From a virus, in the IMG/VR virus record IMGVR_UViG_3300042303_000421, positions 1 to 64,000 of that record: a DNA stretch of 64,000 nucleotides, one strand, 5' to 3'. This document shows, one piece after another, positions 4,123 through 47,735 of this stretch (position 1 is the stretch's first letter; each line of letters opens with the position of its first letter). The notes below the pieces were generated by a model. It saw nothing but the letters and a program-made list of their open reading frames with translations. It searched no databases and had not been told where the DNA came from. A program made the position numbers and the translations under genes.

Positions 4123-4323
4123 GATACGTTTGTTTATTGTGTAGTGAGTGTTGACAATGTAACTAAAACACTACAATTATACATTAAATTTTAGCAAGCC
4201 TATAAAACATAGGGTATACTCCAAAATTTTGAAGAAGTCGGGGCATGATATTGGCTTAGCAACCACTCTTAATCATAAAAAATTTTAAAAAAAAATATTT
4301 TTCAAAAAAAAATTACAACAATT

Positions 4324-4399
4324 AGCTATTAGAGAATGTAATTATAACAAAAATTTAACTAAAAAAATTTGGAAATTACAAATAAATGTTGTATCTTTG
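4324..4399 (+). promoter_or_regulatory. Bacteroidota-type promoter with upstream AGCTATTAG box
   Basis: TTTG 4368-4371, 20-nt spacer, TATCTTTG 4392-4399; AGCTATTAG at 4324-4332. Confidence 0.8.
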
Positions 4400-4413
4400 C
4401 ACTTATTAAAATA

Positions 4414-4685
4414 TCTTACTTTGAAAGATGCTCTGCTGGATACCATAAATTTGCTCCAGTATCAAAGGGTTAAGTAAGAAGTTGGAATCCAATCGTTCCC
4501 AACAATTCAAGACTATAAATTGATTTAACAAAAAGTGTCACGAACTAAAAATGTTACTAGATAACAGTTAAATCTGGGATAATGCACTGTTTATAGTTCA
4601 AGAAGAAGTTAAAATATGACGGTTTATGCAATACACACCAGTTTGCATATAGGGATTCTTATATCTAATTACTAAAGTTAGATAT
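4414..4685 (+). ncRNA. Candidate structured RNA / long 5' leader
   Basis: At least seven stems between the promoter and the 4714 ATG (see findings). Confidence 0.55.
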
Positions 4686-4713
4686 TAAATAGTTAATTAT
4701 AAATTAATATATA

Positions 4714-5256
4714 ATGGTGTATTTTGTGTCCGATGGTATCTATACTAAAATAGGTAAAAGTAAAACTCCTTTAAATAGAATAAAGGAATTACAAACAAGT
4801 AATGCTAATAAATTATTTTTTACACATTTATTTGATGTAAAAGATAAATATGAAAAAACATTACATAAATTATTTAAAGAATATAAAACTGATTCTAATA
4901 ATGAATGGTTTGATTTAAGAAATGTTAATATTGAAAATATACTTATTGGTAATCTATTTAAAATTCCACAATTTATAGATATTAAACTAGCTGAGTTTAA
5001 AGCTTTACAATTTAATTCTAAAGTTAATAAAACATTTAAACAAAATCAAAATATTCCTAATACAGATAGTTGTGATAAAAGTAAAATTAAATTATTATTA
5101 GACGATATTAAACATTGTTTAAAGAATAAAAAAAATACAAGAATATCCTATCATAAATATATTGTTGATTATGGTTTTACTAAAGAACAAATATCTTTTT
5201 TTGTAAAATCAGCAAGATTAAACAAATTAGTAGCTAAACACAATAATAATATTTAG
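4714..5256 (+). CDS. T5orf172/GIY-YIG-superfamily nuclease-domain protein
   Basis: VYFV...KIGKS..P..RIKELQT.N...E..LH..F......EWF pattern. Confidence 0.75.
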   Translation: MVYFVSDGIYTKIGKSKTPLNRIKELQTSNANKLFFTHLFDVKDKYEKTLHKLFKEYKTDSNNEWFDLRNVNIENILIGNLFKIPQFIDIKLAEFKALQFNSKVNKTFKQNQNIPNTDSCDKSKIKLLLDDIKHCLKNKKNTRISYHKYIVDYGFTKEQISFFVKSARLNKLVAKHNNNI

Positions 5257-5286
5257 TACCCCTCCTATGATAGTATTGTAGGATCC

Positions 5287-5320
5287 AACCACTTTAACTT
5301 AGGTTTTAGTGGTTTTTTTT
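5287..5320 (+). terminator. Intrinsic terminator
   Basis: AACCACT/AGTGGTT stem plus T-run. Confidence 0.75.
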
Positions 5321-5361
5321 ATGTCTATATATGTTAAAGTTTTGTTAAACACTTTAAATAA

Positions 5362-5393
5362 TTTGGATATATCATTTATTTTTTGTATCTTTG
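5362..5393 (+). promoter_or_regulatory. Bacteroidota-type promoter
   Basis: TTTG 5362-5365, N20, TATCTTTG 5386-5393. Confidence 0.75.
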
Positions 5394-5416
5394 TACAAGA
5401 TTTAAAATTAGAGGTT

Positions 5417-5611
5417 ATGACATATAAAGATTGGTGTAGTAAATTACAGTGGTTAAGAGATAAAGTTATATTACCAGATGGTACTTCACTTAGTAAAGCA
5501 GATTATATTACTAAAGATGGATTTGATATTAAATCCTTTAATGAATTACTTTATAACTTATATGAAAAACAAACAAAAGAAGTTAAATATTTTAATGATG
5601 AATGGAATTAA
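5417..5611 (+). CDS. Hypothetical protein
   Basis: Start moved to ATG 5417 because the longer ORF call runs through a terminator and promoter. Confidence 0.65.
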   Translation: MTYKDWCSKLQWLRDKVILPDGTSLSKADYITKDGFDIKSFNELLYNLYEKQTKEVKYFNDEWN

Positions 5612-5794
5612 ATGAGGATAACAGATAATATATTTATAGAACTTAATAATCCTAGAATAGAATTTACATTAGGGTTACATCACGAAATAGATATGGTGAT
5701 GATAGAGAAAGAAGATGAAGAAGAGAATGAAATTATACCAATGTATAGATTGGTTTTAGGATTTTTAGTGTTTAACATAACAATATTTTACTAA
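5612..5794 (+). CDS. Hypothetical small protein
   Basis: 60-aa ORF abutting neighbours. Confidence 0.65.
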   Translation: MRITDNIFIELNNPRIEFTLGLHHEIDMVMIEKEDEEENEIIPMYRLVLGFLVFNITIFY

Positions 5795-6069
5795 TGTTTT
5801 TAGATATACAAAAGAAATACAACGAAATAGAACAAGATATTATAGAGAATGAAAAGGATATATTTTTAAGATATAACTATTTTTCTAAGAAATATAAGGG
5901 TGATAGATTAAATGATGTGAATGTAGGTTTATTTTTAAATGATAATTTAGAACCAGTAGCACAGATATTTGTTAGAAACAAAACGGGTTATATTAAAAAA
6001 CATATAATCTTTAATAGAGAAGGAAATAAAATTTTAAATACAATAACTTTAAATTATAAAATAAACTAA
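5794..6069 (+). CDS. Hypothetical protein
   Basis: TAATG coupling at both ends. Confidence 0.7.
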   Translation: MFLDIQKKYNEIEQDIIENEKDIFLRYNYFSKKYKGDRLNDVNVGLFLNDNLEPVAQIFVRNKTGYIKKHIIFNREGNKILNTITLNYKIN

Positions 6070-6374
6070 TGGGAGATATATTTTTATATAATGAAGCAGA
6101 GCATTATGTTAATACTTTAAATGGAGTATTAAATCAAGGTAATCTTGAATTTGCTAAAAAAACATTACTGTTTGATACAGTAAGACCACACACAGAGGTT
6201 GTATCAGCTAAACAACATTATCCAGAGAATGATCTTTCTAAAGTAGAACTTAAAATTGATGTGGTTCTAATGGATAGAGAAAGATATGATAGATTAATTA
6301 AGTTGGAGAAAGCATTAAATAGTCAATATAATAATAGTACTAAAAAAGAATATTTAAATTTTCCTAAATTATAA
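6069..6374 (+). CDS. Hypothetical protein
   Basis: 101-aa ORF, translationally coupled. Confidence 0.7.
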   Translation: MGDIFLYNEAEHYVNTLNGVLNQGNLEFAKKTLLFDTVRPHTEVVSAKQHYPENDLSKVELKIDVVLMDRERYDRLIKLEKALNSQYNNSTKKEYLNFPKL

Positions 6375-6377
6375 TTT

Positions 6378-6674
6378 ATGAGTAGTTATATGAAAAGTGG
6401 GTTACGTCAAATGAAAGTAGCTGAAGGTAAGAAAACAAAGAAACATGTAAAAGCTTCTTATAAGATTATGCATGACATGGAAGAAATAAGTAAATTTTTA
6501 GATCCAACAATAGATTACAATGAAGAAAATATTAATGAATATGTTTTACCTTTGTACGGTAGGGATCTTGATCCAATGGAAAAGTTTCTAGTGTTAGGTA
6601 AGATACACTCACGTAAAGAAGATGTTGTTAATAATATAGAAGTTAAACATGGCTTACAAAATAACACTGAATAA
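6378..6674 (+). CDS. Hypothetical protein
   Basis: 98-aa ORF in operon. Confidence 0.7.
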   Translation: MSSYMKSGLRQMKVAEGKKTKKHVKASYKIMHDMEEISKFLDPTIDYNEENINEYVLPLYGRDLDPMEKFLVLGKIHSRKEDVVNNIEVKHGLQNNTE

Positions 6675-6930
6675 TATTAAACAGTATATTGAAGGTAATA
6701 CCCAGATGATGTTAGATGGTCTGGGTATAAAACCTGACTATTATAAAGAACAGATTGCTTATAGAATGTTACAATGTAGAGATTGTATGTCTAAAGGTGA
6801 ATGTGCTTATTGTGGTTGTAGTGTACCTGGAAAGTTATATGTTGCTCAATCTTGTAATAATGGTAAAAGATTTCCTGATTTAATGGATGAAACAGAATGG
6901 ACTAAATATAAAGAAGACAATGACATTTAA
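6649..6930 (+). CDS. Cys-rich putative zinc-binding protein
   Basis: CRDC..CAYCGC..C motifs. Confidence 0.7.
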   Translation: MAYKITLNNIKQYIEGNTQMMLDGLGIKPDYYKEQIAYRMLQCRDCMSKGECAYCGCSVPGKLYVAQSCNNGKRFPDLMDETEWTKYKEDNDI

Positions 6931-7138
6931 TAATACATATACATTAAAGGATAAAAACATTAAGAAGCTTTTAGATAAAGTAGAAGCATTTATAACTAAT
7001 ATGAATGTGTTTACAACTAAGCATGAAGGATATTCTTATAAGTTAGAAATTAGTAAGTTTAAAAACTTATGGGAAGCAGAAATACATATAAAAGATGAAA
7101 AGCAAAATAGTATTAAAAGAACTGAAAAAACTCTATAA
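6920..7138 (+). CDS. Hypothetical protein
   Basis: In-frame ATG at 6920 reduces overlap. Confidence 0.55.
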   Translation: MTFNNTYTLKDKNIKKLLDKVEAFITNMNVFTTKHEGYSYKLEISKFKNLWEAEIHIKDEKQNSIKRTEKTL

Positions 7139-7406
7139 ACATTTAACGTATTATAATTGGTTAGCACCTTTTCCAGTATATGATACAGATTATGTAAAAG
7201 ACGTTGATAATAAAATTAAAGAGATAATGGAAAATAATAAAAAAGATTATGACGAGGAACCAGTAGTAGCTTGTAAGTATTGTAAAAGTTTACACATTGA
7301 AACAGATGAATTAAACAATGATGTGTGTATGAAATGTGGTAGTATTAATGAACTACAAACATTTAAAAATATTTTTGACTACAAAAAATTTAAAGAAGAA
7401 TCATAA
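7095..7406 (+). CDS. Zinc-ribbon protein
   Basis: CKYC...CMKC motif. Confidence 0.7.
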   Translation: MKSKIVLKELKKLYKHLTYYNWLAPFPVYDTDYVKDVDNKIKEIMENNKKDYDEEPVVACKYCKSLHIETDELNNDVCMKCGSINELQTFKNIFDYKKFKEES

Positions 7407-7407
7407 T

Positions 7408-8073
7408 ATGCATCAAGCTAACAGACAACGTAAAAATGAAATTAAATATAATGTCACTTTAAATGAAGAACAGAAAGAAGCTAAACGAGCTATTATAGAT
7501 AATCAAATTGTAATAATTACTGGTAGAGCAGGTTCGGGTAAATCATTAGTAGGTGCTGTTACAGCTTTAGATTTTTTAAATACTAAACAATGTGATAAAG
7601 TATTAGTTGCTAGAAGTGCTGTTGAAGTAGGTAAATCATTAGGTTTTTTACCTGGAGATTTAAAAGAAAAGTTTAATCCTTATATGGAAGCTTTAATAGA
7701 AAATCTTTATAAGTGTATGGATAGATTAAAAATTGATGATTTTGTTAAACAAGGAAAAATTCAAGCTTTACCTGTACAGTTTATTAGGGGTAAAACTATT
7801 GATGATATATTGATTGTTGAAGAAGCACAAAACCTAACACCTAAAGAAATGGAAGCAATTTTAACCAGATTAGGTACTACAGGTAAAATAATTGTTAATG
7901 GTGATGCTAGTCAACGAGATATTAGTTTAGATAAAGAAACAGGTGGTATAACAGGATTAGACTTTGCAATTGAGTTATCTAAAAACATTGAAGGTATTGT
8001 ACACATTAAACTTAAAGAAAATCACAGAAGTGGACTAGTCGGAAAAATACTAGATTATATATATGGAAAATAA
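7408..8073 (+). CDS. phoH: PhoH-family ATPase
   Basis: GRAGSGKS Walker A, LGFLPGDL.EK..PY, RGKT, EEAQN, GD..Q.D, HRS motifs; start at ATG 7408. Confidence 0.92.
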   Translation: MHQANRQRKNEIKYNVTLNEEQKEAKRAIIDNQIVIITGRAGSGKSLVGAVTALDFLNTKQCDKVLVARSAVEVGKSLGFLPGDLKEKFNPYMEALIENLYKCMDRLKIDDFVKQGKIQALPVQFIRGKTIDDILIVEEAQNLTPKEMEAILTRLGTTGKIIVNGDASQRDISLDKETGGITGLDFAIELSKNIEGIVHIKLKENHRSGLVGKILDYIYGK

Positions 8074-8459
8074 TGAACAATGTTAAACAAGCAAATATTA
8101 ATATTAAGTTAAAAAACCTATTTTTTAAATGGTTAGAGATAACAAAACCTTTACATAAGTTAACACCACAAGAACAAGATGTATTAGCATTACTATTATA
8201 TTATCATTATAAAACCAAACACGAAACTACAAACGAAAAGATCTTGTGGAAAATAGTGTTTGATTATGATACTAAAATGAAAATTAAAGAAAATTTAAAT
8301 ATGAAAGATAGTGCTTTACAAACAGTACTAACTAAATTAAGACAGAAGAAAATTATAATTGATAATAAAATCTCTCCTATCTTTATTCCTTCATTAGAAT
8401 TAAATAGTAAAAATTTTAAAATGATATATAATTTTAATATTATTAGTGATGAAAAATAA
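8073..8459 (+). CDS. Putative DNA-binding (winged-helix-like) protein
   Basis: LT..E.DVL...Y and C-terminal 'KIKENLNM..SALQTVLTKLRQKKII' HTH-like segment. Confidence 0.5.
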   Translation: MNNVKQANINIKLKNLFFKWLEITKPLHKLTPQEQDVLALLLYYHYKTKHETTNEKILWKIVFDYDTKMKIKENLNMKDSALQTVLTKLRQKKIIIDNKISPIFIPSLELNSKNFKMIYNFNIISDEK

Positions 8460-8718
8460 AACACATGAGAGAAAGGTACAACAATTAATTCACAGAATAG
8501 GTTTAAAACATAACTTAACAGATAAACAGGTTGAGGAGATTATAAATTCTCAATATGAGTTTATAAAAGAAAAAATAATAGAAATAGACATCAATGATGT
8601 TGAAATAAAAAGTAATTTTTTACTTAAATACTTAGGTAAATTGTATATAGATAGAGATAAATTAAAAAGTAAAATTGAATCGTATGAAAGAAGACACGCA
8701 GACAAACATGAATCATGA
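8449..8718 (+). CDS. HU/IHF-like DNA-binding protein
   Basis: Helical N-terminus (LIHRIG.KHNLT..QVEEII) then F.L..LGKL beta segment. Confidence 0.5.
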   Translation: MKNKTHERKVQQLIHRIGLKHNLTDKQVEEIINSQYEFIKEKIIEIDINDVEIKSNFLLKYLGKLYIDRDKLKSKIESYERRHADKHES

Positions 8719-9061
8719 TGATATATTAGATGTTATTACAGATTTTCCTGTAAAACCATTATGGGGGCAAGTGATTATTACAGTTAACACTGATGAAGCA
8801 GACGGAGTATTAGTATTATCTGATAGTTCTTTTTCTGAAAAACAATATGTTGTATCAGGAAGTATTGAATATGGAGATACTAAAGTTGTTCCAGGAACAC
8901 CAGTATTGATTGATATTAAGAAATTAATGAAAACTGTAAAGACAGAAGTTGATAATGTTTATGGAGAATATAAAGTTGTAGAAATTGATCCACTTAAAGT
9001 AAATGGAATAATGTATGCAGTAGTAGATAGTAGAGTAATTAAAGCAATTGATTTAAGATAA
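8684..9061 (+). CDS. GroES-like co-chaperonin (divergent)
   Basis: VKPL...VIITV start, GVLVL loop, V.PG..VL, and Y.VV....I.AID end resemble Cpn10; near GroEL; start could be 8708. Confidence 0.5.
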   Translation: MKEDTQTNMNHDDILDVITDFPVKPLWGQVIITVNTDEADGVLVLSDSSFSEKQYVVSGSIEYGDTKVVPGTPVLIDIKKLMKTVKTEVDNVYGEYKVVEIDPLKVNGIMYAVVDSRVIKAIDLR

Positions 9062-9080
9062 TAAATAAAAAATAGAAAAT

Positions 9081-9329
9081 ATGACAATAGTATTAAGTAT
9101 TGTATTGATTTTAACTGTAGCAGCAGTATTTAAATATAAAAGAAAAATTAGTGAATTGAATGCAACAATAGATGCATTAGAACTTGAAATTTTAGAAATA
9201 AACTATAGATGGGAAAAAGAACTTAATGTTTATCAACTTAGTATTGATAATCTTAAACTTACACAATGTAAGAATGAGTGTAAAGAATCTGAACCAGTTG
9301 TAGTTAAAGTTAGAAAACCTAAAAAATAA
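9081..9329 (+). CDS. Small membrane-anchored coiled-coil protein
   Basis: N-terminal TM followed by heptad pattern. Confidence 0.65.
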   Translation: MTIVLSIVLILTVAAVFKYKRKISELNATIDALELEILEINYRWEKELNVYQLSIDNLKLTQCKNECKESEPVVVKVRKPKK

Positions 9330-9895
9330 TGAAGTTATTTGAAATGAAAAACCATGACCTCCAGACGAACGAAGCTCTCTGGGGGTTATTACCTTTTAAA
9401 GCTTTACTAAAAAGAGATAAAAGTAGAAATAAAGAAATTGTATTTAAAGAAATACTCTTTATTTATTTTTATTGTGATATCCGTTCTGATTATGTTTATA
9501 TAACTAATGATGAACTTAGAGCTAAAGAGATACAAAAAGATGTTGGTTTACCTACAGAATGGAAAATAGATAAAGCTATTTTAGATGCAATTGAAATGTA
9601 TGAATCTAAAACTATAACTCCAGTAGGTAAATTATATAAAAGTTCATTAAAAGCAGCAGACGATATTTCTAATTATTTAGAATCAACAAATGTACTTTTA
9701 AATGAAAGAACGGATAAAGGTAGTGTAGTAACTCCTTTAACAACTATTACTTCAGCTCTTAAATCAGTACCAGGTATTATGAGAGATTTAAAAGCAGCTT
9801 ATAAAGAAGTAGTAGCAGAACAAAAAGAAATGGAAGGAAGAACTAAAGGTAGTCGTACTTTAGGAATGTTTGAAGAAGGATTTGATCTTAATTAA
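9329..9895 (+). CDS. Conserved crAss-like protein upstream of terminase (possible small terminase subunit)
   Basis: 188-aa helical ORF; function inferred from position only. Confidence 0.5.
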   Translation: MKLFEMKNHDLQTNEALWGLLPFKALLKRDKSRNKEIVFKEILFIYFYCDIRSDYVYITNDELRAKEIQKDVGLPTEWKIDKAILDAIEMYESKTITPVGKLYKSSLKAADDISNYLESTNVLLNERTDKGSVVTPLTTITSALKSVPGIMRDLKAAYKEVVAEQKEMEGRTKGSRTLGMFEEGFDLN

Positions 9896-9896
9896 T

Positions 9897-10463
9897 ATGA
9901 AAAATAATATTTGTATTTACAGACATATTAGGTTAGATACTAATAAAATATTTTATATTGGAATAGGTTCTTTAAAAAGAGCTTATAAAAAATATGGAAG
10001 AAATACTTATTGGAAAAATATTACTAATAAAATAGATTATGAAGTACAAATTCTTAAAAAAGATTTGACTTGGGAAGATGCTAAAGAATTAGAAATAATA
10101 TTAATAAAATATTATGGTAGAATAAATAATAATACAGGTATTTTAGTAAATATGACAGATGGTGGTGAGGGACAACTTAATTTTAGGCCTACAAAAGAAA
10201 CTAGAGAAAAAATTGGAAATTTTCATAGAAATAAAAAAGTATCTTCTATTTCAAAAGAAAAAATGTCAAAAGCTAAAGAAGGTATGTATTATTTAGAAAA
10301 TAATCCTAATTCTAAAAAAGTTGTAAATATAAAAACAAATGAAATATATAACACTTTATTAGAAGCGTCTAAAAGTATTAACATGAATTATAGTTCTTTT
10401 AAATGGGCTATTAAACATAAAAAGAATTTTAATTTTAAATATTTACAAATATGGGAGAAATAG
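9897..10463 (+). CDS. Homing endonuclease, GIY-YIG-like with NUMOD3-type repeats
   Basis: IYRH.R.D....FYIGIG...RA, E..LI..YGR, N.TDGGEG, ETREKI / SKEKMSKAK. Confidence 0.85.
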   Translation: MKNNICIYRHIRLDTNKIFYIGIGSLKRAYKKYGRNTYWKNITNKIDYEVQILKKDLTWEDAKELEIILIKYYGRINNNTGILVNMTDGGEGQLNFRPTKETREKIGNFHRNKKVSSISKEKMSKAKEGMYYLENNPNSKKVVNIKTNEIYNTLLEASKSINMNYSSFKWAIKHKKNFNFKYLQIWEK

Positions 10464-11923
10464 AATTTAGTCCGAAAGATAAATTAAAAGAAGGTGTTAG
10501 AAAGTTAGCACAAGCAGTAGGTTCTACAATGGGCCCTAATGGTGCAACTGTTATTATTCCTGACAAAGATAAATTTAATAGTTATAAGATAACTAAAGAT
10601 GGTGTATCTGTTGCTAGAGAAATTAGATTTAAAGATCCTATTGAAAATATAGGTGCTAAACTAATTAAGGAAGTAGCAGAGTTACAAGTTCAACAAGCAG
10701 GAGACGGAACTACTACAGCAATTGTATTAGCTTCTGCGTTTATTGAAAACTTATTTGAATTTGAATATAATGATATTGAAAAAGCATTTGATGAAATTAT
10801 ACCTAAAGTATTAAAACAATTAAAAGCTAATTCTAAAGAACTTAAAAAAGAAAATGTTAAATATGTAGCAACTATATCTGCTAATAACGATTCTAAAATA
10901 GGTGATTTAATTCAAAAAGCTTATAATTTTTCAAACTTAGTTAAAGCTGAAAAAGGTATATCACAAGAAGATAAATTAGATTTGGTAGATGGTATGAAAT
11001 TACTTTCTACATATTTTTCTAAAAACTTTATCACAAATAAAGAAAAAGCTGAGTGTAATTTAGAAACACCTAATGTGTTGTTAATTGATGGTAAATTAGA
11101 AGATTTAAAACCTTATACAGGTATTATTGAAACTAAAGCAACTAATGGTCAATCATTAGTAATTGTAACTGAACACATATCAGATAAAGAATTACGTAAA
11201 TTAGAAGCACATGTATTAAGTAAAAATATAAAATTATGTGTTATTAAAACTCCAGGATTTGGTCAGTTTAGAAAAGATATATTAAGAGATCTTTCAGACT
11301 TTACAGGAGCTTCTGTAATCAATAATCCTAAAGGAGATGTAAGTATTTCTGCTTTAGGTAAATTAAAGTCTATTAAAGTAACTAATGATTCAGCGTTACT
11401 TGTTAAAGATGATTCTATAAATGTAACAGAACTTATTGAAAGTTTAAAAATACTATCTAAAAATTTAACTAGCTACGATAAAGAACAAGTAGATAAACGC
11501 ATTGAACAGTTAACTGGTAAAGTTGCTGTTATTTATGTTGGTGGTGGTTCTGAATTAGAACGAGATGAAAGATTTGATAGATATGATGATGCTATTAAAG
11601 CAGTAGCTTGTGCATTAGAAGAAGGTATTGTAGAAGGTGGTGGTTATGCTTTAGCTGATGTTCAAAAAATTATATATGAAGACTTTTATCAGTATAAAAA
11701 TAATTCAAATATAATTAATAATTTATTATTAGTTTCATTAGTTAAACCTTGGAATACAATAGTAAATAATGGTTATATAAATGTTAAATCAAATACAATG
11801 TTTGAACAAAATATCATAGACCCATTAAAAGTAACCAGATGTGCATTAGAAAATGCGGTATCTGTAGCTAAAACAATTTTGTCAACTAAGACAGTTGTAT
11901 TAAATGAACAAGAATGGAATTAA
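10451..11923 (+). CDS. groEL: Phage-encoded group I chaperonin
   Basis: TMGPNG, ITKDGVSVA, AGDGTTT, ATISAN, K.PGFG, EEGIV.GGG, IIDP.KVTR.ALENA.SVA. Confidence 0.95.
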   Translation: MGEIEFSPKDKLKEGVRKLAQAVGSTMGPNGATVIIPDKDKFNSYKITKDGVSVAREIRFKDPIENIGAKLIKEVAELQVQQAGDGTTTAIVLASAFIENLFEFEYNDIEKAFDEIIPKVLKQLKANSKELKKENVKYVATISANNDSKIGDLIQKAYNFSNLVKAEKGISQEDKLDLVDGMKLLSTYFSKNFITNKEKAECNLETPNVLLIDGKLEDLKPYTGIIETKATNGQSLVIVTEHISDKELRKLEAHVLSKNIKLCVIKTPGFGQFRKDILRDLSDFTGASVINNPKGDVSISALGKLKSIKVTNDSALLVKDDSINVTELIESLKILSKNLTSYDKEQVDKRIEQLTGKVAVIYVGGGSELERDERFDRYDDAIKAVACALEEGIVEGGGYALADVQKIIYEDFYQYKNNSNIINNLLLVSLVKPWNTIVNNGYINVKSNTMFEQNIIDPLKVTRCALENAVSVAKTILSTKTVVLNEQEWN

Positions 11924-14193
11924 AAAATCTCAATCGTTATCAAACACCTATAACAGATGAATTAAAAGAATCAGTTCCTAAAGAAGTTTGGGAGAATTTA
12001 TTAGAATATGTATCTTCAGTTAAGTTTATACAAAGACTTATTGCACCTGAAGAAGTGAGAGGTTATGCTAAAGACAGACCTAAAGAAACAAAATTTTACA
12101 ATGATGGTAGAATTGAAGTAGATATAACCAATCCTCATATACTTGAGGATATGGACTACTTTAGAGAACGTGCAATTTTCTTTGATAAGAATGGTAGATA
12201 TACTAATCTTATTCCTAATAGTAATCCTAAATCTGAATATGCTCAATTTTGGAAAGATGAATTAATTAAATGGAAAGATGGTGTTGTAAGACCGTCTGAT
12301 GGTGAGTGGATTCCAGGACAATTATATTTTTATTGGAATTACAGTCCAATTTGGTTAACTGAAAAAATGGAAACTACTGTTGTTAATACTAATAAGAAAA
12401 GTAAAGGTGAACGTTTAAAGAAGTTTGCCAAACCTTGGTTAGGTGATTATTTGTTTTATCATTATATGCAACAAGGTAGAGATTATGGTAAACATGGTAA
12501 ACTACTTAAAACTCGTGGAGTTGGTTTCTCTTTTAAAATGGGAAGTATCAGCCCTTGTAATATGTATACATATACAGGATCTGGTAATCCAAACTTTCAC
12601 TTAGCATCTGACAAAACATTTCTTATTGGTGATAAAGGTATTTGGGGTAAAGTAGTAGATACTTTAGACTGGGTAGCTGATACAACACCATTACCTCGTA
12701 TGAGGTTAACAGATAGATCACAACCTACACTTGAGATACAAATTGGTTATAAAGATGAGTATGGTTCACGTAGAGGATTATTATCATCAGTTAATGGTAT
12801 ATCTTTAAAAGATAATCCTGATAAAGCAAGGGGTGTTCGTGGACCTTTAATACATTATGAAGAAGATGGTTTATTTCCTAATCTTGAAAAAGCTTGGGGT
12901 GTTAATAGAAAAGCAGTAGAAGATGGTGATGTATCATTTGGATATATGTTAGCTGGTGGAACAGGTGGTACAGTAGGAGCTTCATTTGAAGGTTCTGAAA
13001 GATTATTCTATCAACCAGATGCTTATAATATTTATGGTATACCTAACGTATTTGATAAGAATACAAATGGTGAAAGTAATTGTGGATTCTTTTGGGGAGC
13101 TTATTTAAATAGAAATGAGTGTTATGACCAAACTAATGGTGAACCTGATGTAATTAAATCTTTAATTGAAATTCTTTTAGATAGACATGAAGTAAAATAT
13201 GGTTCATCTGAATCATCTGCTATTACACAGAAGAAAGCTGAGGAACCTATTACACCACAAGAAGCAGTGATGCGTATTGATGGTACTATATTTCCTGTAG
13301 CAGATTTAAAAGAATATTTAGAAAGTATTGGACCTCGAAGAGATTCATTTTTAGTTGAACATTATACTGGAGAATTAGTAGTTAATAGTCAAGGTTTAGT
13401 TGAATGGAAACCTAATGCTGATTTAACTCCTTTAAGAGCTTATGATTCATCAGATACTAATAAAACAGGTGCTATAGAAATATTTACAATGCCTCGTAAA
13501 AATAGTCATGGTGAAATAACTAGAGGTAGATATATTGCTGGTATTGACCCTATTGATTCAGATACAGGTAAATCTTTATTTAGTGTTTTAGTGTTAGATA
13601 CATTTACAGATACTATTGTAGCAGAATACTCAGGTAGACCTAGATTAACTACTGATGCTTATGAGATATGTTTAAGACTTCTTAAATTTTATAATGCTGA
13701 AGCAAATTATGAAGCTAATTTAAAAGGTTTATTTTCTTATTTTGATTCTAAAAATTGTCTTCACTACTTAGCTGATGTACCTCAAATTCTTAAAGATATG
13801 GATATGGTAAAAGCTACTAATTTATATGGTAATAAAGCTAAAGGTACACACGCTAATGCAAACATTAATAAATGGGGTAGACAACTACAAGCAGAATGGA
13901 TGTTAACAAAGTCTATACAATCTGATGATGAAAATCCTAAATTAAATATGCATTATTTAAGAAGTATTCCTTATATACAAGAATGTATAGCTTGGAATGC
14001 TGATGGTAACTTTGACCGTGTATCTGCAGCAGGTATGTTATTTATACTACGTGAAGATAGATTTAAAAGAATACAGTCAACTAAAATAAATGATAGTAAC
14101 AAAGGTAGTAAATTATCACATGATCCATTTTTTGAAAAAAACTTTAAAAAAGATAAAGATAACAATAAGCTATTAGGAAAAATTAATTATTAA
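11914..14193 (+). CDS. terL: Terminase large subunit
   Basis: KTRGVGFS Walker A variant, IHYEE Walker B, GTGG, IAGIDP nuclease motif, NFDRV; directly upstream of portal. Confidence 0.92.
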   Translation: MELKNLNRYQTPITDELKESVPKEVWENLLEYVSSVKFIQRLIAPEEVRGYAKDRPKETKFYNDGRIEVDITNPHILEDMDYFRERAIFFDKNGRYTNLIPNSNPKSEYAQFWKDELIKWKDGVVRPSDGEWIPGQLYFYWNYSPIWLTEKMETTVVNTNKKSKGERLKKFAKPWLGDYLFYHYMQQGRDYGKHGKLLKTRGVGFSFKMGSISPCNMYTYTGSGNPNFHLASDKTFLIGDKGIWGKVVDTLDWVADTTPLPRMRLTDRSQPTLEIQIGYKDEYGSRRGLLSSVNGISLKDNPDKARGVRGPLIHYEEDGLFPNLEKAWGVNRKAVEDGDVSFGYMLAGGTGGTVGASFEGSERLFYQPDAYNIYGIPNVFDKNTNGESNCGFFWGAYLNRNECYDQTNGEPDVIKSLIEILLDRHEVKYGSSESSAITQKKAEEPITPQEAVMRIDGTIFPVADLKEYLESIGPRRDSFLVEHYTGELVVNSQGLVEWKPNADLTPLRAYDSSDTNKTGAIEIFTMPRKNSHGEITRGRYIAGIDPIDSDTGKSLFSVLVLDTFTDTIVAEYSGRPRLTTDAYEICLRLLKFYNAEANYEANLKGLFSYFDSKNCLHYLADVPQILKDMDMVKATNLYGNKAKGTHANANINKWGRQLQAEWMLTKSIQSDDENPKLNMHYLRSIPYIQECIAWNADGNFDRVSAAGMLFILREDRFKRIQSTKINDSNKGSKLSHDPFFEKNFKKDKDNNKLLGKINY

Positions 14194-14243
14194 ATAATAA
14201 TTTGCTTTTTATTTGGAATTTTAATAAAAATTTTGTATATTAG
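14168..14243 (+). promoter_or_regulatory. Portal promoter with AGCTATTAG box
   Basis: AGCTATTAG 14168-14176, TTTG 14212-14215, N20, TATATTAG 14236-14243. Confidence 0.7.
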
Positions 14244-14264
14244 CAAGTTTAATAAAAATATCAT

Positions 14265-16637
14265 ATGAGAATAAATAATTTAACTTTACCAAGACAAAGA
14301 CTTTCGTATAATCAAAAGACTAAAGAATGGCGAAAAGATAATGTTGATTATGCTGATAAGTTTTCTTTTTATAATAGTGAGAATGTAAGAAATACTCTTA
14401 AAAATAAAATTACAAATTTAAATCTGTATAATGGAATAGTTGATGTTAGAGATATGGCTAATGTTGTAAATCCTCATCATTTAGATGCATCATTTATTCC
14501 AGACAATATTCCTCATCATGCAATAGCTGTTCCTAAAATAGATTTATTAGTAGGAGAAGAAGTTAAAAGAAGATTTGACTGGTCAGTTATTGTAACTAAT
14601 CCTGAAGCTGTAACTAAAAAAGAAACAGCTAAAAAGGAATTTATAATGCAAAAATTAACTGAGTATTTACAAGCTAATTATGCAGAAGAGGAACTTGATG
14701 CTAAAATGCAAGATCTTCAAAAATATTTAAAATATGAATGGCAAGATCTTAGAGAAAAGATGGCTAATCAGATTTTAAGACATTATTGGAAAGAACAAAA
14801 GTTTGATTTGATTTTTAATAACTGTTTTAAAGATGCATTATTATTTGCAGAACAAATTGTTCAAGTAGATGTAATTCACAATGAACCAGTACTTATTAAA
14901 TTAAATCCTTTAAAAGTACATGCTGTACGTTCAGGTAATTCAGATAAGATTGAAGATTCTTCTATTATCATTATAGAAGATTATTGGAGTCCTGCATACT
15001 GTATTGATGTATATCACGATCAACTTAAACCTAAAGATGTAGATGCTATTTTAGAATACACTACAGTTAGTTCTAATGGATCATATACAGATGATGATAA
15101 TAACCATACATTACTTCGTGATGGTATGGAAGGTAATCATATGATTGATGGAGTATTAGATTTTGCGGAAATTAATGGACATATATTTAATAATAACTTT
15201 ACAGATGAACATGGTAATATACGTGTACTTAAAGTAATGTGGAGATCACTTAAACTAATTAAGAAAATTAAATTTTATGATGAGTTTGGTGAAGAACAAT
15301 ATAAAATAATGTCAGAAGAATATCAACCTGTAAAAGCACTTGGTGAAGAATCAACTGAATTATGGGTTAATGAATGGTGGGAAGGTGTTAAGATAGGTAA
15401 AGACATATATGTTAATATGCGTCCTAGACCTGTTCAATATAATAGATTAAATAATCCTTCTTATTGTCATCCTGGTATTATAGGTCAAATTTATAATACT
15501 AATCAAGGACGAGCGGTATCTTTAATGGATAGAGTTAAAAACTCTCAATATATGTATGATGCTATGTGGGATAGACTTAATAAAGCTATTGCTACAAATT
15601 ATGGTAAAATTGCAAATATTGACTTAGCTGGTATTCCTGATGGATGGGAAATAGAAAAATGGTTACACTTTGCAATAGTTAATAAGATTGCTTTTAGAGA
15701 TTCATTTAAAGAAGGTAATCAAGGTGCTGCTACAGGTAAACTTGCAGGTTCATTTAATAATGGACAATCAAGTTCAATTGATATGGAAACAGGTAATTAT
15801 ATACAACAACATATTCAATTACTTGAATTTATTAAAATGGAAATGGGTGAACTTTGTGGTGTTAGTAAACAACGTGAAGGTCAAATATCTAATAGAGAAA
15901 CAGTTGGTGGTGTAGAACGTTCAGTAAATCAATCTAGTCATATTACTGAAAGTTTATTTATGTTACATGAAAACTTTAAGATTAGAGTATTAGATGCATT
16001 TCTTGAAACAGCTAAGTTTGCTTTAAAAGGTAACAACTTAAAAACACAATATATATTAGATGACCAAACAGTTGAGATTCTTAATATAGAAGGTGATGAA
16101 TTTGCAGAATGTGATTATGGTATCTTAACTTCTAATTCACCTAAAACAATTGAGTTAGATCAAATGATGAAACAACTTGCACAAGCATATTTACAAAATG
16201 GTGGTTCAATGTCTACAATTATAGATATTTATATGTCACCATCTATTATGGATATGAAACGTAAAATTGAAGAAGCAGAAGAAAAACAAGCACAACAAGC
16301 ACAAGCTCAGAATGAAGCAATGCAAGAACAAACACAAGCAATGGTTCAAATGGAGCAAATGAAAATTCAATTAGAAGATACTAAAAATATTCGAGATAAT
16401 GAAACTAAGATTTATATTGCTGAGTTAACTAAAGGAACAGAGCAGACATCTACAGATGATGGTATTTTAGATCCTCTTGAATTAGAGAAACATGAATTAA
16501 ATAAAGAAAAAGTTAAAAATGATTATTTAGCTAAGATGAAAGCATTACAACAAGATATGGAAAAACATAAAGATAATGTAATGTTGAAAAAAGAATCTAA
16601 TTCTATATCTAGAATTAAGAAAAAATCAAGCAATTAG
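14265..16637 (+). CDS. Portal protein
   Basis: 790 aa, LP.Q.L...K...W start, PKIDLL.GE, G.S.QREG.I...E.VG.V, Q-rich C-terminal coiled coil; between terL and capsid. Confidence 0.88.
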   Translation: MRINNLTLPRQRLSYNQKTKEWRKDNVDYADKFSFYNSENVRNTLKNKITNLNLYNGIVDVRDMANVVNPHHLDASFIPDNIPHHAIAVPKIDLLVGEEVKRRFDWSVIVTNPEAVTKKETAKKEFIMQKLTEYLQANYAEEELDAKMQDLQKYLKYEWQDLREKMANQILRHYWKEQKFDLIFNNCFKDALLFAEQIVQVDVIHNEPVLIKLNPLKVHAVRSGNSDKIEDSSIIIIEDYWSPAYCIDVYHDQLKPKDVDAILEYTTVSSNGSYTDDDNNHTLLRDGMEGNHMIDGVLDFAEINGHIFNNNFTDEHGNIRVLKVMWRSLKLIKKIKFYDEFGEEQYKIMSEEYQPVKALGEESTELWVNEWWEGVKIGKDIYVNMRPRPVQYNRLNNPSYCHPGIIGQIYNTNQGRAVSLMDRVKNSQYMYDAMWDRLNKAIATNYGKIANIDLAGIPDGWEIEKWLHFAIVNKIAFRDSFKEGNQGAATGKLAGSFNNGQSSSIDMETGNYIQQHIQLLEFIKMEMGELCGVSKQREGQISNRETVGGVERSVNQSSHITESLFMLHENFKIRVLDAFLETAKFALKGNNLKTQYILDDQTVEILNIEGDEFAECDYGILTSNSPKTIELDQMMKQLAQAYLQNGGSMSTIIDIYMSPSIMDMKRKIEEAEEKQAQQAQAQNEAMQEQTQAMVQMEQMKIQLEDTKNIRDNETKIYIAELTKGTEQTSTDDGILDPLELEKHELNKEKVKNDYLAKMKALQQDMEKHKDNVMLKKESNSISRIKKKSSN

Positions 16638-16711
16638 CTATTAGAAAAATCAATATTAATGAAAAAAATATAAAATATATTTGCATTCTTAATAAAAATG
16701 TTGTATATTTG
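16636..16711 (+). promoter_or_regulatory. Scaffold/capsid promoter with AGCTATTAG box
   Basis: AGCTATTAG 16636-16644, TTTG 16680-16683, N20, TATATTTG 16704-16711. Confidence 0.8.
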
Positions 16712-16739
16712 TATTTTATAATAAAAATAGGGAGAAATT

Positions 16740-17840
16740 ATGGAAGAAAATGAATTTGAAATGGATCTTTTTGGAGATTCTAATTATGATTTAAATTATG
16801 AGGATAATCCTTTTGAATCTTTTACGGAAGAACAAACTGATGATAATGATAATGATGAATCACAAGATGACAACACAGATGATCAATCTGACAACAATGA
16901 TAATAATCTCGACGAGGACGAAGGTTCAGAGGAAGTAGGCGAGGATGAAGTAGGTGATGAAGGTGGGGGTGAAAGTAACAATTCTCCCAATCTGTATTCT
17001 TCTCTGTTTAGTGTCCTTTATGATGAAGGATTACTGCCCTCACTGGATCCCACTTCCACTGAAGTTAAAACTCCTGCAGATTTAGCAGAAGCTTTTAAAA
17101 AAGAAATTGATGTTCAGACTGATTTAAAATTACAAAAGTATTTAGAAAATATTGATGTTAATCAAATAGCACAAAGTAAAGCACAGATTAATGATTTATC
17201 TCAAATCAATGAAGAATATTTAAGAGATAATTTAGATACTGCAAAAGAAATCATTAAACAAGATTATTTAAATCAAGGTTTACCTGAAGCTAAAGTAAAT
17301 AGACTTTTAAATAAAACTATTGATTTAGGTGAAGATATGATTTTGGAAGAAGCTTTAGAATCTTTAGAATCTTTAAAAGTTTTTAATCAACGTAAAATTG
17401 AACAAGAACAACTTGCTTATAAAGAACGATTAGTTCAAGAGCAAAAAGATAATGAAGTATTACAAAATAAAATTAAAGACAGTCTTTATAATTCAAAATC
17501 TTTTATCGAAGGACTACCTGTAAACAAGGCTATCCAAGATAGAGTATATAAAGCAATGAATGATGTTGTAAGTAAAGATCCAACAACAGGTGAAATGGAA
17601 AATGAATTAATGAAATCTCGTAGAGAAAATCCTCTTGAGTTTGATTTAAAATTATATTATCTATATACACTTACAAATGGATTTAAAAACTTTAATAACA
17701 TTGTTTCAAATACCAAATCTAAAGTAATTAAAGATTTAGAAACTGCAATCCGTAGAACACCTGTTAAAGATAATGGAATACCTTCTTTTTTACAAGATAG
17801 TAATTCATATAGTGGTATGGGGGATGAACTTGTTCTGTAA
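16740..17840 (+). CDS. Putative capsid scaffolding protein
   Basis: Very acidic disordered N-terminus, helical body, between portal and major capsid gene. Confidence 0.65.
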   Translation: MEENEFEMDLFGDSNYDLNYEDNPFESFTEEQTDDNDNDESQDDNTDDQSDNNDNNLDEDEGSEEVGEDEVGDEGGGESNNSPNLYSSLFSVLYDEGLLPSLDPTSTEVKTPADLAEAFKKEIDVQTDLKLQKYLENIDVNQIAQSKAQINDLSQINEEYLRDNLDTAKEIIKQDYLNQGLPEAKVNRLLNKTIDLGEDMILEEALESLESLKVFNQRKIEQEQLAYKERLVQEQKDNEVLQNKIKDSLYNSKSFIEGLPVNKAIQDRVYKAMNDVVSKDPTTGEMENELMKSRRENPLEFDLKLYYLYTLTNGFKNFNNIVSNTKSKVIKDLETAIRRTPVKDNGIPSFLQDSNSYSGMGDELVL

Positions 17841-17866: not shown

Positions 17867-19378
17867 ATGAATCTAGGTAAATTTACAATGATCAAAGGAC
17901 AAGCTTGGTCAGGTTTAACTTTGAAAAATCACATTGGAGCCATATTTGGTTCTAAGCCTCAAATGGCTACTAAAATCACAACTGTATTGTTACAAAATTC
18001 AGGAATGAAAAATTTAGATACAACTCTATCTTTATTCCCTGAAAAAATATTAGAATCAGCTGATGACTTTATGTGGAAAGTTGTAGGAAGTGAAGAAAGA
18101 AACATTCCTCTTGTTGAAGCTCGTTGGAATGGTGCTGTTGTTAATAGTGGAACAACTGGTGTTGGTGCTGCTCGTGCAACTTTTGAATTAGTATTCGGTG
18201 AAAAATGGTTTACTAAAATGCATTTAATTGCAGGACATAGACCAGATTTGTATCAAGTACGTATTATCAACGAACCTTTTGAAGAAGGTCAAAACTACGT
18301 TTATACTGTTGAAGTATTTGGTGGTCAAGAAACATTAAATGGTATTCCAGGTGATGAGTTCTTACCAGGAAACAGATTCTCTATTGAGGGTGCTCCTGTT
18401 GAAGATGAATTATCTACTCAAGGTGCTGGAATTCAATTTACATCTCCTTACTTATTGAGAAACTCTGTTACATCTATTCGTATGGAACATAAAGTTTCTG
18501 GTAAAATGATTGACTGTAAAGTTGAGCCAGTTTATTTTTCTGGTATTGAAACTAGAGATCCTAGTACAGGAAAAGTACACAAATCAGTAACTTGGATGCA
18601 AGAAGTTTACTGGCAGTTTGAAAAACAATTATCTCGTATTAAATCTAAAACAGTTATGTTTGGTAAAACCAACCGTGATGAAAATAGTAGATTTTTAAAT
18701 AAAGGTAATTCAAACATTGAAATTAAAGCAGGTTCAGGTATCCGTGAGCAAATGGAAGTATCTAATACAGTGACTTACAACTTGTTCTCTATTAGATTAC
18801 TTGAAGATATGCTTTATGAATTGTCAGAAGGTAAACTTGATTGGGGTGAAAGAAAATTCATGTTACGTACAGGTGAAAGAGGAGCTGCTCAGTTCCATAG
18901 AGCTGTAACACAAGAAGCTTCTGGATGGCAAGCACTTGGTTTTGATAACACTAATTCTAATGCTATCAAACAAACTACTTCTAAATTCCACAGTAATGCT
19001 TTTGTAGCAGGATTCCAATTCACTGAATGGAAAGCCCCTAACAACATTCATGTAATGTTAGAAGTTGACCCAATGTATGATGATAAAGTAAGAAATAAAG
19101 TTATGCACCCAGCTGGTGGTGTAGCTGAGTCTTATCGTTATGACATCCTTTACATTGGTGCAATGGAAGAGCCTAATATTCAAAAAGTAAAAGTACGTGG
19201 TTCTGATGAACTTCGTGGTTACAAAGCTGGTATTAGAGATCCATTTACAGGACGTAGAGGTGGTGTAATGCAACACATGGAAGATTCTGCAACAATCACT
19301 GCACTTTGTGAAGGTATTGGAGCATTAGTAATCGATCCAGGTCGTACTGCAACTTTAAAACCTGCAATCATAGATTAA
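17867..19378 (+). CDS. Major capsid protein
   Basis: 503 aa, W.GLT..NH start, G.G..EQ, TG..G..QF motifs of crAss-like MCPs; synteny. Confidence 0.88.
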   Translation: MNLGKFTMIKGQAWSGLTLKNHIGAIFGSKPQMATKITTVLLQNSGMKNLDTTLSLFPEKILESADDFMWKVVGSEERNIPLVEARWNGAVVNSGTTGVGAARATFELVFGEKWFTKMHLIAGHRPDLYQVRIINEPFEEGQNYVYTVEVFGGQETLNGIPGDEFLPGNRFSIEGAPVEDELSTQGAGIQFTSPYLLRNSVTSIRMEHKVSGKMIDCKVEPVYFSGIETRDPSTGKVHKSVTWMQEVYWQFEKQLSRIKSKTVMFGKTNRDENSRFLNKGNSNIEIKAGSGIREQMEVSNTVTYNLFSIRLLEDMLYELSEGKLDWGERKFMLRTGERGAAQFHRAVTQEASGWQALGFDNTNSNAIKQTTSKFHSNAFVAGFQFTEWKAPNNIHVMLEVDPMYDDKVRNKVMHPAGGVAESYRYDILYIGAMEEPNIQKVKVRGSDELRGYKAGIRDPFTGRRGGVMQHMEDSATITALCEGIGALVIDPGRTATLKPAIID

Positions 19379-31443: not shown

Positions 31444-31475
31444 TTAGGAATTATCAAATATATTTTGTACCTTTG
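31444..31475 (+). promoter_or_regulatory. Bacteroidota-type promoter
   Basis: TTAG 31444-31447, N20, TACCTTTG 31468-31475. Confidence 0.7.
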
Positions 31476-32521: not shown

Positions 32522-33202
32522 ATGATATTATCAAAATTAATTTACGATGTACGAGAAGGTATAAAACAATACCAAGACGATACAGAAATAGATGATAGAC
32601 ACATTATACATCTATTTAATATTAAACGAGCTAAATATTTAAGACAAGAACTTAATAATTTACAAAGAAGTGTAGATATTTCTATAACACAAAGTTTTTG
32701 TGAAGGATTAGAAGAAGTGTCTATAAATCAATGTAATTTAGATTTTGTTTGTGGAAAAATACTTAGAACTAAAAGACCTATTCCACAAGCATTAGAATTA
32801 CATTTAGCACCTGCAATCACAAGTGTTAAACCTACAAACATAACAAGTTTACCTTTTAATTTTTTACCTAAAGAAAGAGCTTTATATCATCAATTTTCAC
32901 CATTTAAAAATAGTATTTATTCTTTTTTAAATGATGATGGTTATATTTATTTAATTAGTGAAAATAAAGCTTTAAGATTAATTGAATGTATAACTGTTTC
33001 AGGAGTATTTGAAGATCCTTTAGAATTAAAAATTTATAATAATTGTTGTGGATGTGAAACACCTGCACCTTGTTTTGATATAAATTCTACAGATTATCCT
33101 TTACAATCACATTATATAGATTTAATTAAAATGGAAATTATAAGTGAATATGTAAAACTTTTACAAATACCTGAAGATAAAACTAATGATTCAAATGACT
33201 AA
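32522..33202 (+). CDS. Putative tail ring protein
   Basis: R...L.Q, G.FEDP, DYPL, D..ND pattern of crAss-like ring proteins. Confidence 0.6.
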   Translation: MILSKLIYDVREGIKQYQDDTEIDDRHIIHLFNIKRAKYLRQELNNLQRSVDISITQSFCEGLEEVSINQCNLDFVCGKILRTKRPIPQALELHLAPAITSVKPTNITSLPFNFLPKERALYHQFSPFKNSIYSFLNDDGYIYLISENKALRLIECITVSGVFEDPLELKIYNNCCGCETPAPCFDINSTDYPLQSHYIDLIKMEIISEYVKLLQIPEDKTNDSND

Positions 33203-33704
33203 GAAATCTAATAATAAAATTCAAGTTCATTATGGAATTACTGATTATTATAAATATTATAAAGATAAATATAAAAATCATGTTTCTTCAAAAAAATATA
33301 ATAAAATTATTTCAGATTTTAATAATGAAATTATTAATTTAATTTTAAATGAGAATATAGAATATTATATGAATCATTTACATTTAGTTGTAGGTGTTAG
33401 AAAAGTTAAAAGAAGACCTCGTATTGTAAATGGAAAACTACGTAATACTGTACCTATTGATTGGAAAGTTACTAAAGAACTATGGCAATCTGATGAAGAA
33501 GCAAAAGAGAAAAAACTTCTTGTAAGATTTAATAATTCTCATACTTCTGGTTATATTTTTAGTATAAATCTTATTAAGGTAGGATTAGGTTTTAAAAATA
33601 AAAAATATTACAAATTTAAAGCAGCTAGAAATTTTGCTAGAGATTTAGCTAAAAGAATTAAAGATGAAGAAAAAGAAAGATATGACACTTATAAATTATA
33701 TTAA
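33186..33704 (+). CDS. IHF/HU-like basic protein of the crAss tail module
   Basis: Basic; IDWK.T..LW, N.HT.GY, F...R...R.LA; synteny before tail tube. Confidence 0.6.
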   Translation: MIQMTKKSNNKIQVHYGITDYYKYYKDKYKNHVSSKKYNKIISDFNNEIINLILNENIEYYMNHLHLVVGVRKVKRRPRIVNGKLRNTVPIDWKVTKELWQSDEEAKEKKLLVRFNNSHTSGYIFSINLIKVGLGFKNKKYYKFKAARNFARDLAKRIKDEEKERYDTYKLY

Positions 33705-38560: not shown

Positions 38561-38592
38561 TTAGGAAATATAGAAAATATTTTGTATATTTG
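38561..38592 (+). promoter_or_regulatory. Bacteroidota-type promoter
   Basis: TTAG 38561-38564, N20, TATATTTG 38585-38592. Confidence 0.7.
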
Positions 38593-47703: not shown

Positions 47704-47735
47704 TTTGGAATTGTCAAATAAATTTCGTATATTTG
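47704..47735 (+). promoter_or_regulatory. Bacteroidota-type promoter for vRNAP gene
   Basis: TTTG 47704-47707, N20, TATATTTG 47728-47735. Confidence 0.75.

Follow-up and report, generated by a model that had tools for sequence, protein, structure and literature searches.

A short box at a fixed distance upstream of host-type promoters marks the portal and capsid operons in a lineage of crAss-like phages

The stretch of DNA analysed here, referred to as the window, covers the opening 64 kb of a viral record 79,654 bp in length (IMG/VR record IMGVR_UViG_3300042303_000421, positions 1 to 64,000; 26% G+C). Its subject is a short box, AGCTATTAG, which stands at one and the same distance upstream of three promoters of the type used by Bacteroidota RNA polymerase: those of the portal gene, of the capsid operon and of a structured RNA. 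Comparison with related phages strongly supports the view that selection acts on the box and that it functions in cis, in a fixed geometrical relation to the host-type promoter. As judged from these genomes, no other sequence feature was found that sets the apparent late head-gene promoters apart from the remaining host-type promoters. It is moderately probable that the box serves as docking site for a sequence-specific protein, probably a late activator made by the phage, which would cooperate with host RNA polymerase from a position near -80.

Throughout the 79,654-bp record, AGCTATTAG occurs on the + strand with starts at 4324, 14168 and 16636 and nowhere else, and all three copies are linked to promoters. 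These promoters are of the Bacteroidota type, defined here as TTTG at -33, a distance of 20 nucleotides (nt) and TAnnTT(T/A)G at -7, with an A-rich block between. All three conform to the core pattern of Bacteroidota sigma-A (TTTG near -33 and TAnnTTTG near -7, about 19-21 nt apart), the 14236 copy of the -7 element reading TATATTAG. The -7 octamers start at 4392 (TATCTTTG), 14236 and 16704 (TATATTTG), which places each exactly 68 nt from the start of its box, and the -33 TTTG follows the start of the box by 44 nt at all three promoters. An earlier sequence-only reading of the window had reported these three starts and the identical 68-nt offset, and both are confirmed. The stretch common to the three copies is 14 nt long, CAATWAGCTATTAG, and no copy of it with one mismatch was found elsewhere in the window; in this phage the box reads (C)AATWAGCTATTAG. 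The genome-wide count of the 9-mer that had been proposed as a check is not significant by itself: 0.85 copies are expected, and three are reached in 7 of 100 shuffled sequences. The weight of the box comes instead from the 14-nt shared stretch, from the single common offset within a small promoter class and from conservation in relatives. The spacer between the box and the core promoter is 89-94% A+T with A-tracts and is probably curved. No hairpin was found between box and promoter in the window (z -0.45 and +1.2 for the near-identical L004 modules).

Two of the three copies overlap protein-coding sequence, as the same reading had pointed out for the end of terL and for the portal stop codon. 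The 14168 copy is translated by terL as K-L-L-G, and the copy behind the portal gene contains its stop codon, a TAG (16635-16637). TAG is rare in this phage, ending 3 of 46 open reading frames (ORFs) versus 40 that end in TAA. Among 50 non-redundant relatives, 35 likewise end the portal gene with the TAG that the box contains. In the window, the end of terL (14167-14193) runs through the box and ends 17 nt beyond it (…K-L-L-G-K-I-N-Y-stop). In several relatives, the terL TAA lies just 5' of the box, which is kept as DNA in whatever frame.

Conservation was examined in 80 loci from viral contigs that were collected with a portal query and encode portal proteins 52-98% identical to it. Almost all of them carry AGCTAT (rarely AGCCAT or CGCTAT) both 5' of the portal gene and just 3' of it. 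Conservation at a fixed spacing in orthologous promoters, one of the points on which the sequence-only reading had let its case depend, was found at both junctions. Among 46 modules less than 80% alike, the flanking bases that had not been used in picking the box are also conserved: on the left A (44/46), A (39/46) and T (35/46), and on the right T (39/46) and A (41/46). The 40 nt from the box to the -33 element hold almost no information in the same modules. The resulting family consensus is AAATAGCTATTA, with a centre, AATAGCTATT, that is a perfect 10-bp palindrome whose right half is the better kept. The corresponding sequence is TTAGCTATT or TAAGCTATT in the window and AACGCTATT in the Cellulophaga phage phi14:2.

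The spacing is conserved along with the sequence. Measured to the best -7 element, the box of the terL/portal junction stands 68 nt away in 35 of 58 non-redundant modules, 67, 69 or 70 nt in 13, 62 nt in one and 47-49 nt in eight, and the counts at the junction of the portal gene and the capsid operon are nearly identical. Overall, about 85% of relatives have 68±1 nt. Where the distance changes, it tends to change at both junctions. The two promoters are equally spaced in 29 of 35 non-redundant genomes, and deviant spacings occur in concert (48/48 in three genomes, 69/69 in four, and 62/62, 67/67 and 70/70 in one each); this concordance was reached by none of 10,000 permutations, although kinship means that the phages are not independent. 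In the most divergent clade, that of the genomes G006 and G007 (loci L072-L081), all three box promoters show a spacing of 48 nt and have no recognisable -33 TTG, and in G007 AGCCAT replaces AGCTAT at two of the three. The difference between 48 and 68 nt is 20 bp, or about two turns of the helix, which fits a protein that must face RNA polymerase. The 68±1 nt of most relatives and the 48-nt clade agree with a spacing rule of the class I type; the single 62/62 genome does not fit it. Strong hairpins, many of them plain intrinsic terminators, interrupt the stretch from box to -7 element in 17 of 62 modules, and the 68 nt are preserved. Examples of such hairpin-bearing loci are L038 (3' of the portal gene), L024, L051, L054 and L016; the -33 TTTG is sometimes within the stem.

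The box is restricted to a small part of the promoter class. A scan with a position weight matrix detected eight promoters of the class in the record, seven of them in the window, versus one in a shuffled control. The four window promoters other than those of the portal gene, the capsid operon and the structured RNA lack the box, as had been claimed from the sequence. The eighth promoter, at 67747 on the - strand, lies beyond the window in the replication arm and is also box-less. Six complete relatives, assembled from fetched stretches and then scanned for promoters and box, have 5-11 promoters of the class per genome (control 0-2), and two to four of these carry the box. The carriers include the portal promoter and the next promoter, that of the g092 homologue and major head protein, in all six. 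A third box promoter followed by a leader of 290-395 nt is present in G001, G006 and G007, while the long-leader promoter of G002 has a degenerate box, ATGCTAT, and G001 has a fourth copy of the box. With the window phage (G000 in these comparisons) included, whole-genome scans of seven genomes thus limit the box to portal, post-portal and long-leader promoters. The promoter orthologous to P070 of phi14:2 has a palindrome of its own, composed of A and T only (approximately TTATTATAC-N3-GTATAATAA) and situated 45-65 nt 5' of the -33 element; it is seen in G004 (about 43655-43730), G006 (about 93690-93765), G007 (about 39640-39564, - strand) and 5' of g070 in phi14:2. This TTATTATAC-type sequence was considered as a second class of box and rejected, as it belongs to one orthologous promoter and is partly the coding end of the upstream gene.

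The promoters of phi14:2 allow the box to be set against published transcription classes. In this phage AACGCTATTAAAA lies 5' of g093 (portal) and of g092 at the distance seen in the window phage; at P092, GCTAT precedes the -33 TTTG by 43 nt. Nothing box-like is present at the middle promoters P070, P075, P108 and P110, and a pattern search of the phi14:2 genome gave no additional promoter-linked copy. According to the text of a study of phi14:2 (Drobysheva et al., bioRxiv 10.1101/2020.03.07.982082), its middle and late genes are transcribed by the rifampicin-sensitive RNA polymerase of the host. The same text describes an 'extended tripartite' motif, with two blocks like -35 and -10, before the middle transcripts g070, g075, g108 and g110, and similar motifs before homologues of the late genes g092 and g093. 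It also gives primer-extension ends for promoters of this class and names the g091 capsid transcript, downstream of P092, as the most abundant in phi14:2 (bioRxiv 10.1101/2020.03.07.982082). The tripartite consensus, TTTGGAAnT ... AAAT ... TGTATATTTG, is found at seven sites in the window. The likeness extends from the -33/-35 block, A-rich middle and -7/-10 block to the location of such promoters before the portal gene, the g092 homologue and the virion RNA polymerase gene. The difference is that the text of the paper treats the core motif only, with middle and late promoters pooled; an element upstream of the core promoter is not mentioned in that text (bioRxiv 10.1101/2020.03.07.982082). 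The box separates the promoters that the text assigns to late genes (g092 and g093) from those that it assigns to middle genes. Literature searches found no description of the box and no account of what separates middle from late expression in crAss-like phages.

The third box promoter drives a transcription unit of a different kind, which consists of an RNA leader of about 307 nt, a T5orf172 ORF and, behind it, a terminator. The leader is conserved in the window, in G002 (99155-98850) and in G007 (71022-70727), and it looks nearly identical between the window phage and G002 although their portal proteins are only about 66% identical. This may reflect either strong constraint or a mobile cassette. 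A profile of the leader, searched with nhmmer, matched only its three source genomes (G000, G002 and G007), with no match in G001, G003, G004, G006, phi14:2 or the first 30 kb of crAss001. A permissive Rfam scan of positions 4380-5340 gave nothing meaningful, and at gathering thresholds Rfam recognised only tRNA in the whole window. In the 48-nt clade the third promoter likewise has the 48-nt spacing. By this comparison, the promoter with the 4324 copy is a conserved member of the putative regulon. Since no + strand gene lies upstream of the 4324 copy, the box there cannot be a 3'-end signal of an upstream mRNA.

Bacteroidota promoters start transcription about 7 nt after the -7 element, and on this assumption the centre of the box would lie at about -80. 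In the mechanism proposed here, the box would be bound by a protein of the phage that is encoded in the box-less 'middle' operon (5.4-14 kb) and that would recruit or stabilise host sigma-A RNA polymerase at the -33 and -7 elements, across the probably curved spacer, in the manner of class I activation. The outcome would be a delayed and very strong late expression of the head genes, from a regulon of three promoters comprising those of the portal gene, the capsid operon (g092 homologue and major head protein) and the structured-RNA unit. Activation is favoured over repression by the position of the site, by the missing -33 element in the 48-nt clade and by the very strong expression of the phi14:2 capsid operon at late times. 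The G/C-containing palindromic core points to recognition of double-stranded DNA rather than to an A/T-rich UP element. The sequence-only reading had interpreted the box as the binding site of a phage-encoded activator of late portal and capsid promoters. What stands of this, on comparative evidence, is a cis element that marks the portal and capsid promoters; protein binding, the sign of the effect, the phage origin and the identity of the factor are inferred. New relative to that reading are the conserved place of the structured-RNA promoter in the putative regulon, the palindromic family consensus and the concerted changes of spacing between clades.

Activators of similar design are familiar from other phages; as far as could be found, none has been described for crAss-like phages. 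In Bacillus phage phi29, the late promoter A3 has a site centred at about -82 for the phage protein p4, which bends the DNA and recruits host RNA polymerase. The box has in common with it a presumed upstream position near -80 at a late promoter used by host RNA polymerase. No p4 homologue was found, but no search was aimed at one. However, A3 has no -35 element and its site is a long interrupted inverted repeat, whereas the promoters considered here mostly have a good -33 element and a compact 10-bp palindrome. Class I sites of CRP in E. coli work only at positions separated by whole helical turns (about -61.5, -72.5 and -82.5), which the presumed box centres of about -80 and about -60 in the two clades resemble. 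They differ in that CRP, a known dimer in contact with the alpha C-terminal domain, occupies palindromes of 22 bp, and in that one genome of the present family is about half a turn off phase. Mu C, Ogr/Delta of P2/P4 and staphylococcal RinA are likewise phage DNA-binding proteins that activate a few late promoters of host RNA polymerase, but their sites lie at about -30 to -55, near or over the -35 region of promoters that lack a -35 element, and thus much closer than the box (PMC2582627, PMC3152322).

Several known types of element were considered for the box and rejected. UP elements are A/T-rich, lie at about -40 to -60 and are contacted by the alpha C-terminal domain; the invariant core of the box is AGCT, about 76-85 nt upstream of the presumed start. 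The site of integration host factor (IHF; WATCAANNNNTTR) has a match in one of the three regions, just upstream of the third box, and none within a box. In the MotA-box type of T4 (sigma appropriation), the box replaces the -35 element at about -30, and here the -33 TTTG is intact and follows the box by 44 nt.

The features that favour a phage-made activator have to be weighed against other explanations. A host protein, either a Bacteroidota transcription factor or a nucleoid protein, might bind the box, the phage borrowing a host input for its head genes. The promoters are of host type, the orthologous phi14:2 genes are read by host RNA polymerase (according to the text of bioRxiv 10.1101/2020.03.07.982082), the clade-specific variants and spacings of the box could track differences between hosts, and a phage factor is so far known at candidate level only. 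Against this, the box is found at just two to four promoters per phage genome, always at the same gene junctions, and late timing is more simply achieved with a factor made during infection, which makes a host factor rather unlikely. It is also conceivable that the box is a negative timer, at which a protein bound near -80 keeps the head promoters off early in infection, by looping or by spreading over the A/T-rich spacer, until it is displaced. Such a site would suit core elements that are near consensus and should work alone, and the box promoters of phi14:2 do fall in the later class, as that text presents it. However, one short site, 35 bp away from the -33 element on its upstream side, is poorly placed to repress, conservation near the core promoter reveals no second operator, the lack of a -33 TTG in the 48-nt clade is typical of activator-dependent promoters, and the capsid transcript is the most abundant in phi14:2 (text of bioRxiv 10.1101/2020.03.07.982082). 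A timer site is therefore quite unlikely.

The location of the box at the very end of terL and of the portal gene, the portal TAG stop that it so often contains and the hairpin or terminator that directly follows it in about 27% of relatives would all suit a signal that works at the RNA level, where the preceding message ends, in processing, termination or antitermination. Yet the box keeps its distance to the -7 element and not to the hairpins, and neither the window nor most relatives have such hairpins; the 4324 copy has no + strand gene upstream; the reading frame of terL at the box differs between phages, with read-through here and a stop before the box in relatives; and the consensus is palindromic. 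A role in RNA is very unlikely on these grounds. Finally, RNA polymerase itself might touch the box, either because this is a distal UP-like element or by means of a Bacteroidota-specific domain of alpha or sigma, with no extra factor. The fixed geometry relative to the core promoter would agree with this, but the core of the box contains G and C and lies near -80, and other strong promoters in these phages have no box, which leaves direct contact as a very improbable explanation.

Some observations also weigh against a phage-made activator at the box. The box promoters already have good -33 and -7 elements, and why they should need an activator is not evident. Binding by a dimer is uncertain in view of the left half of the palindrome, which is imperfect both in the window and in phi14:2. 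In one genome the spacing is 62 nt, which is no whole number of helical turns from 68, and all the counts are inflated by kinship among the phages. In addition, no candidate protein is tied to the box by co-variation, and crAss001 has a homologue of the leading candidate, the product of ORF 8073-8459, yet lacks this box. For this reason, presence or absence of that gene cannot separate box-carrying from box-less phages, and profiling of gene presence and absence singled out no factor. No AGCTAT box was found at the portal or gp31 promoters of crAss001, and DAC15 has no intergenic promoter before its portal gene; both are Bacteroides phages of the same family, which suggests that the box is specific to one lineage.

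ORF 8073-8459, already named among the possible factors by the sequence-only reading, is a plausible candidate only. All seven box-carrying genomes that were compared encode a homologue, with identities of 44-66% in the six complete relatives and 49% for g098 of phi14:2, and homologues in crAss001 and related Bacteroides phages have been deposited as 'VpsT-like transcriptional regulator'. Its AlphaFold2 model has a predicted local distance difference test score (pLDDT) of 90 and a predicted template modelling score (pTM) of 0.83. Foldseek returned no match at E<=0.001, the top weak rows being of MarR type, and the protein has no Pfam or PHROG family and no PDB sequence match. VIA gave Z 6-6.8 to the winged helices of LexA, MarR, the Crp C-terminal domain, ORC and DnaD, and comparison of the model with MotA gave Z 6.2-6.8 with a root-mean-square deviation of 6.5-7.5; both results were rated non-discriminating. 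Three neighbouring ORFs are alternative candidates (Table 1). The block of zinc-ribbon, ORF 8073-8459, HU-like and GroES-like genes has the gene order of Gp11-Gp15 in crAss001 and in the window lies behind the box-less promoter at 5362. The protein of 6649-6930 is present in six of the seven box-carrying genomes and was not found in crAss001. An IHF-like ORF at 33186-33704 has no Pfam match.

Table 1. Box copies, class promoters, associated genes and candidate-factor genes in the window
Feature	Position	Strand	Remarks
Box copy 1 (CAATTAGCTATTAG)	4319..4332	+	Divergent intergenic region; no + strand ORF ends there
Box copy 2 (CAATAAGCTATTAG)	14163..14176	+	Inside 3' end of terL ORF
Box copy 3 (CAATTAGCTATTAG)	16631..16644	+	Contains portal stop TAG
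Promoter 1: -33 TTTG, 20 nt, -7 TATCTTTG	4368..4399	+	Drives 307-nt structured leader and T5orf172 ORF
Promoter 2: -33 TTTG, -7 TATATTAG	14212..14243	+	Drives portal
Promoter 3: -33 TTTG, -7 TATATTTG	16680..16711	+	Drives g092 homologue and major head protein
Box-less promoter	5362..5393	+	Heads 5.4-14.2 kb operon: small proteins, PhoH, chaperonins, terL, candidate regulators
Box-less promoter, -33 variant TTAG	31444..31475	+	
Box-less promoter	38561..38592	+	Before GIY-YIG/NUMOD1 endonuclease ORF
Box-less promoter	47704..47735	+	Before 2660-aa virion RNA polymerase ORF
Promoter 1 transcription unit	4404..5256	+	Conserved structured RNA 4404-4710; T5orf172/MUG113 ORF 4714-5256
terL ORF	11914-14193	+	
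Portal	14265-16637	+	Downstream of promoter 2
phi14:2 g092 homologue	16740-17840	+	Downstream of promoter 3
Major head protein	17867-19378	+	Same operon as g092 homologue
Candidate factor, 128 aa	8073..8459	+	Putative role; orthologue of phi14:2 g098 and crAss001 Gp13; winged-helix-like model
Alternative candidate, 90 aa	8446..8718	+	Weak HU-like N-terminus; gene-order position of crAss001 Gp14 'protein HU'
Alternative candidate, 103-aa zinc-ribbon protein	7095..7406	+	Same gene block as crAss001 Gp11 ('zinc-finger fold' factor)
Alternative candidate, 93-aa Cys-rich protein, phrog_13610	6649..6930	+	Matches phi14:2 g100 region

The head genes of the window phage match those of phi14:2 at the DNA level, and protein identity is 58% for the portal and 63% for the major head protein. 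The gene order is crAss-like, with small genes, PhoH, chaperonins, terL, portal, the g092 homologue, the major head protein, tail genes and three giant ORFs, one of which encodes the virion RNA polymerase. Near-identical DNA is present in lake and freshwater metagenomes (public sequencing runs). Four RNA-labelled public runs with this phage exist as contigs only, and two of them are probably DNA. Three ORFs of the window are of endonuclease type: 38612-39550 (GIY-YIG/NUMOD1), 9870-10463 (NUMOD3-bearing) and 4714-5256 (T5orf172). Two of the three have a phage promoter copy of their own, a pattern expected of mobile cassettes. At 16726-16739, a strong Shine-Dalgarno-like GGGAGAA lies 5' of the start codon of the g092 homologue and is found in the same place in nearly all relatives; genes of Bacteroidota usually lack Shine-Dalgarno sites, which makes it a noteworthy exception.

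The crAss-like phages are among the most abundant phages, and their early genes are transcribed by an injected virion polymerase, the middle and late genes by host RNA polymerase. For this group, the box offers a testable candidate for the docking site of the late-gene switch, and because it is kept in the culturable model phage phi14:2, the question of the switch can be addressed directly. It also provides a simple late-promoter marker for the annotation of this phage lineage, and it places a structured RNA in the same putative regulon as portal and capsid. It is tempting to speculate that the three promoters form an ancient regulon, in which an RNA of about 300 nt is switched together with portal and capsid and serves as a component of morphogenesis or packaging, as does the packaging RNA of phi29, with a new factor acting from -80 on the Bacteroidota sigma-A polymerase. 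Such a scheme is unlikely. If true, a three-promoter regulon with a new -80 factor would explain the middle-to-late transition of crAss-like phages.

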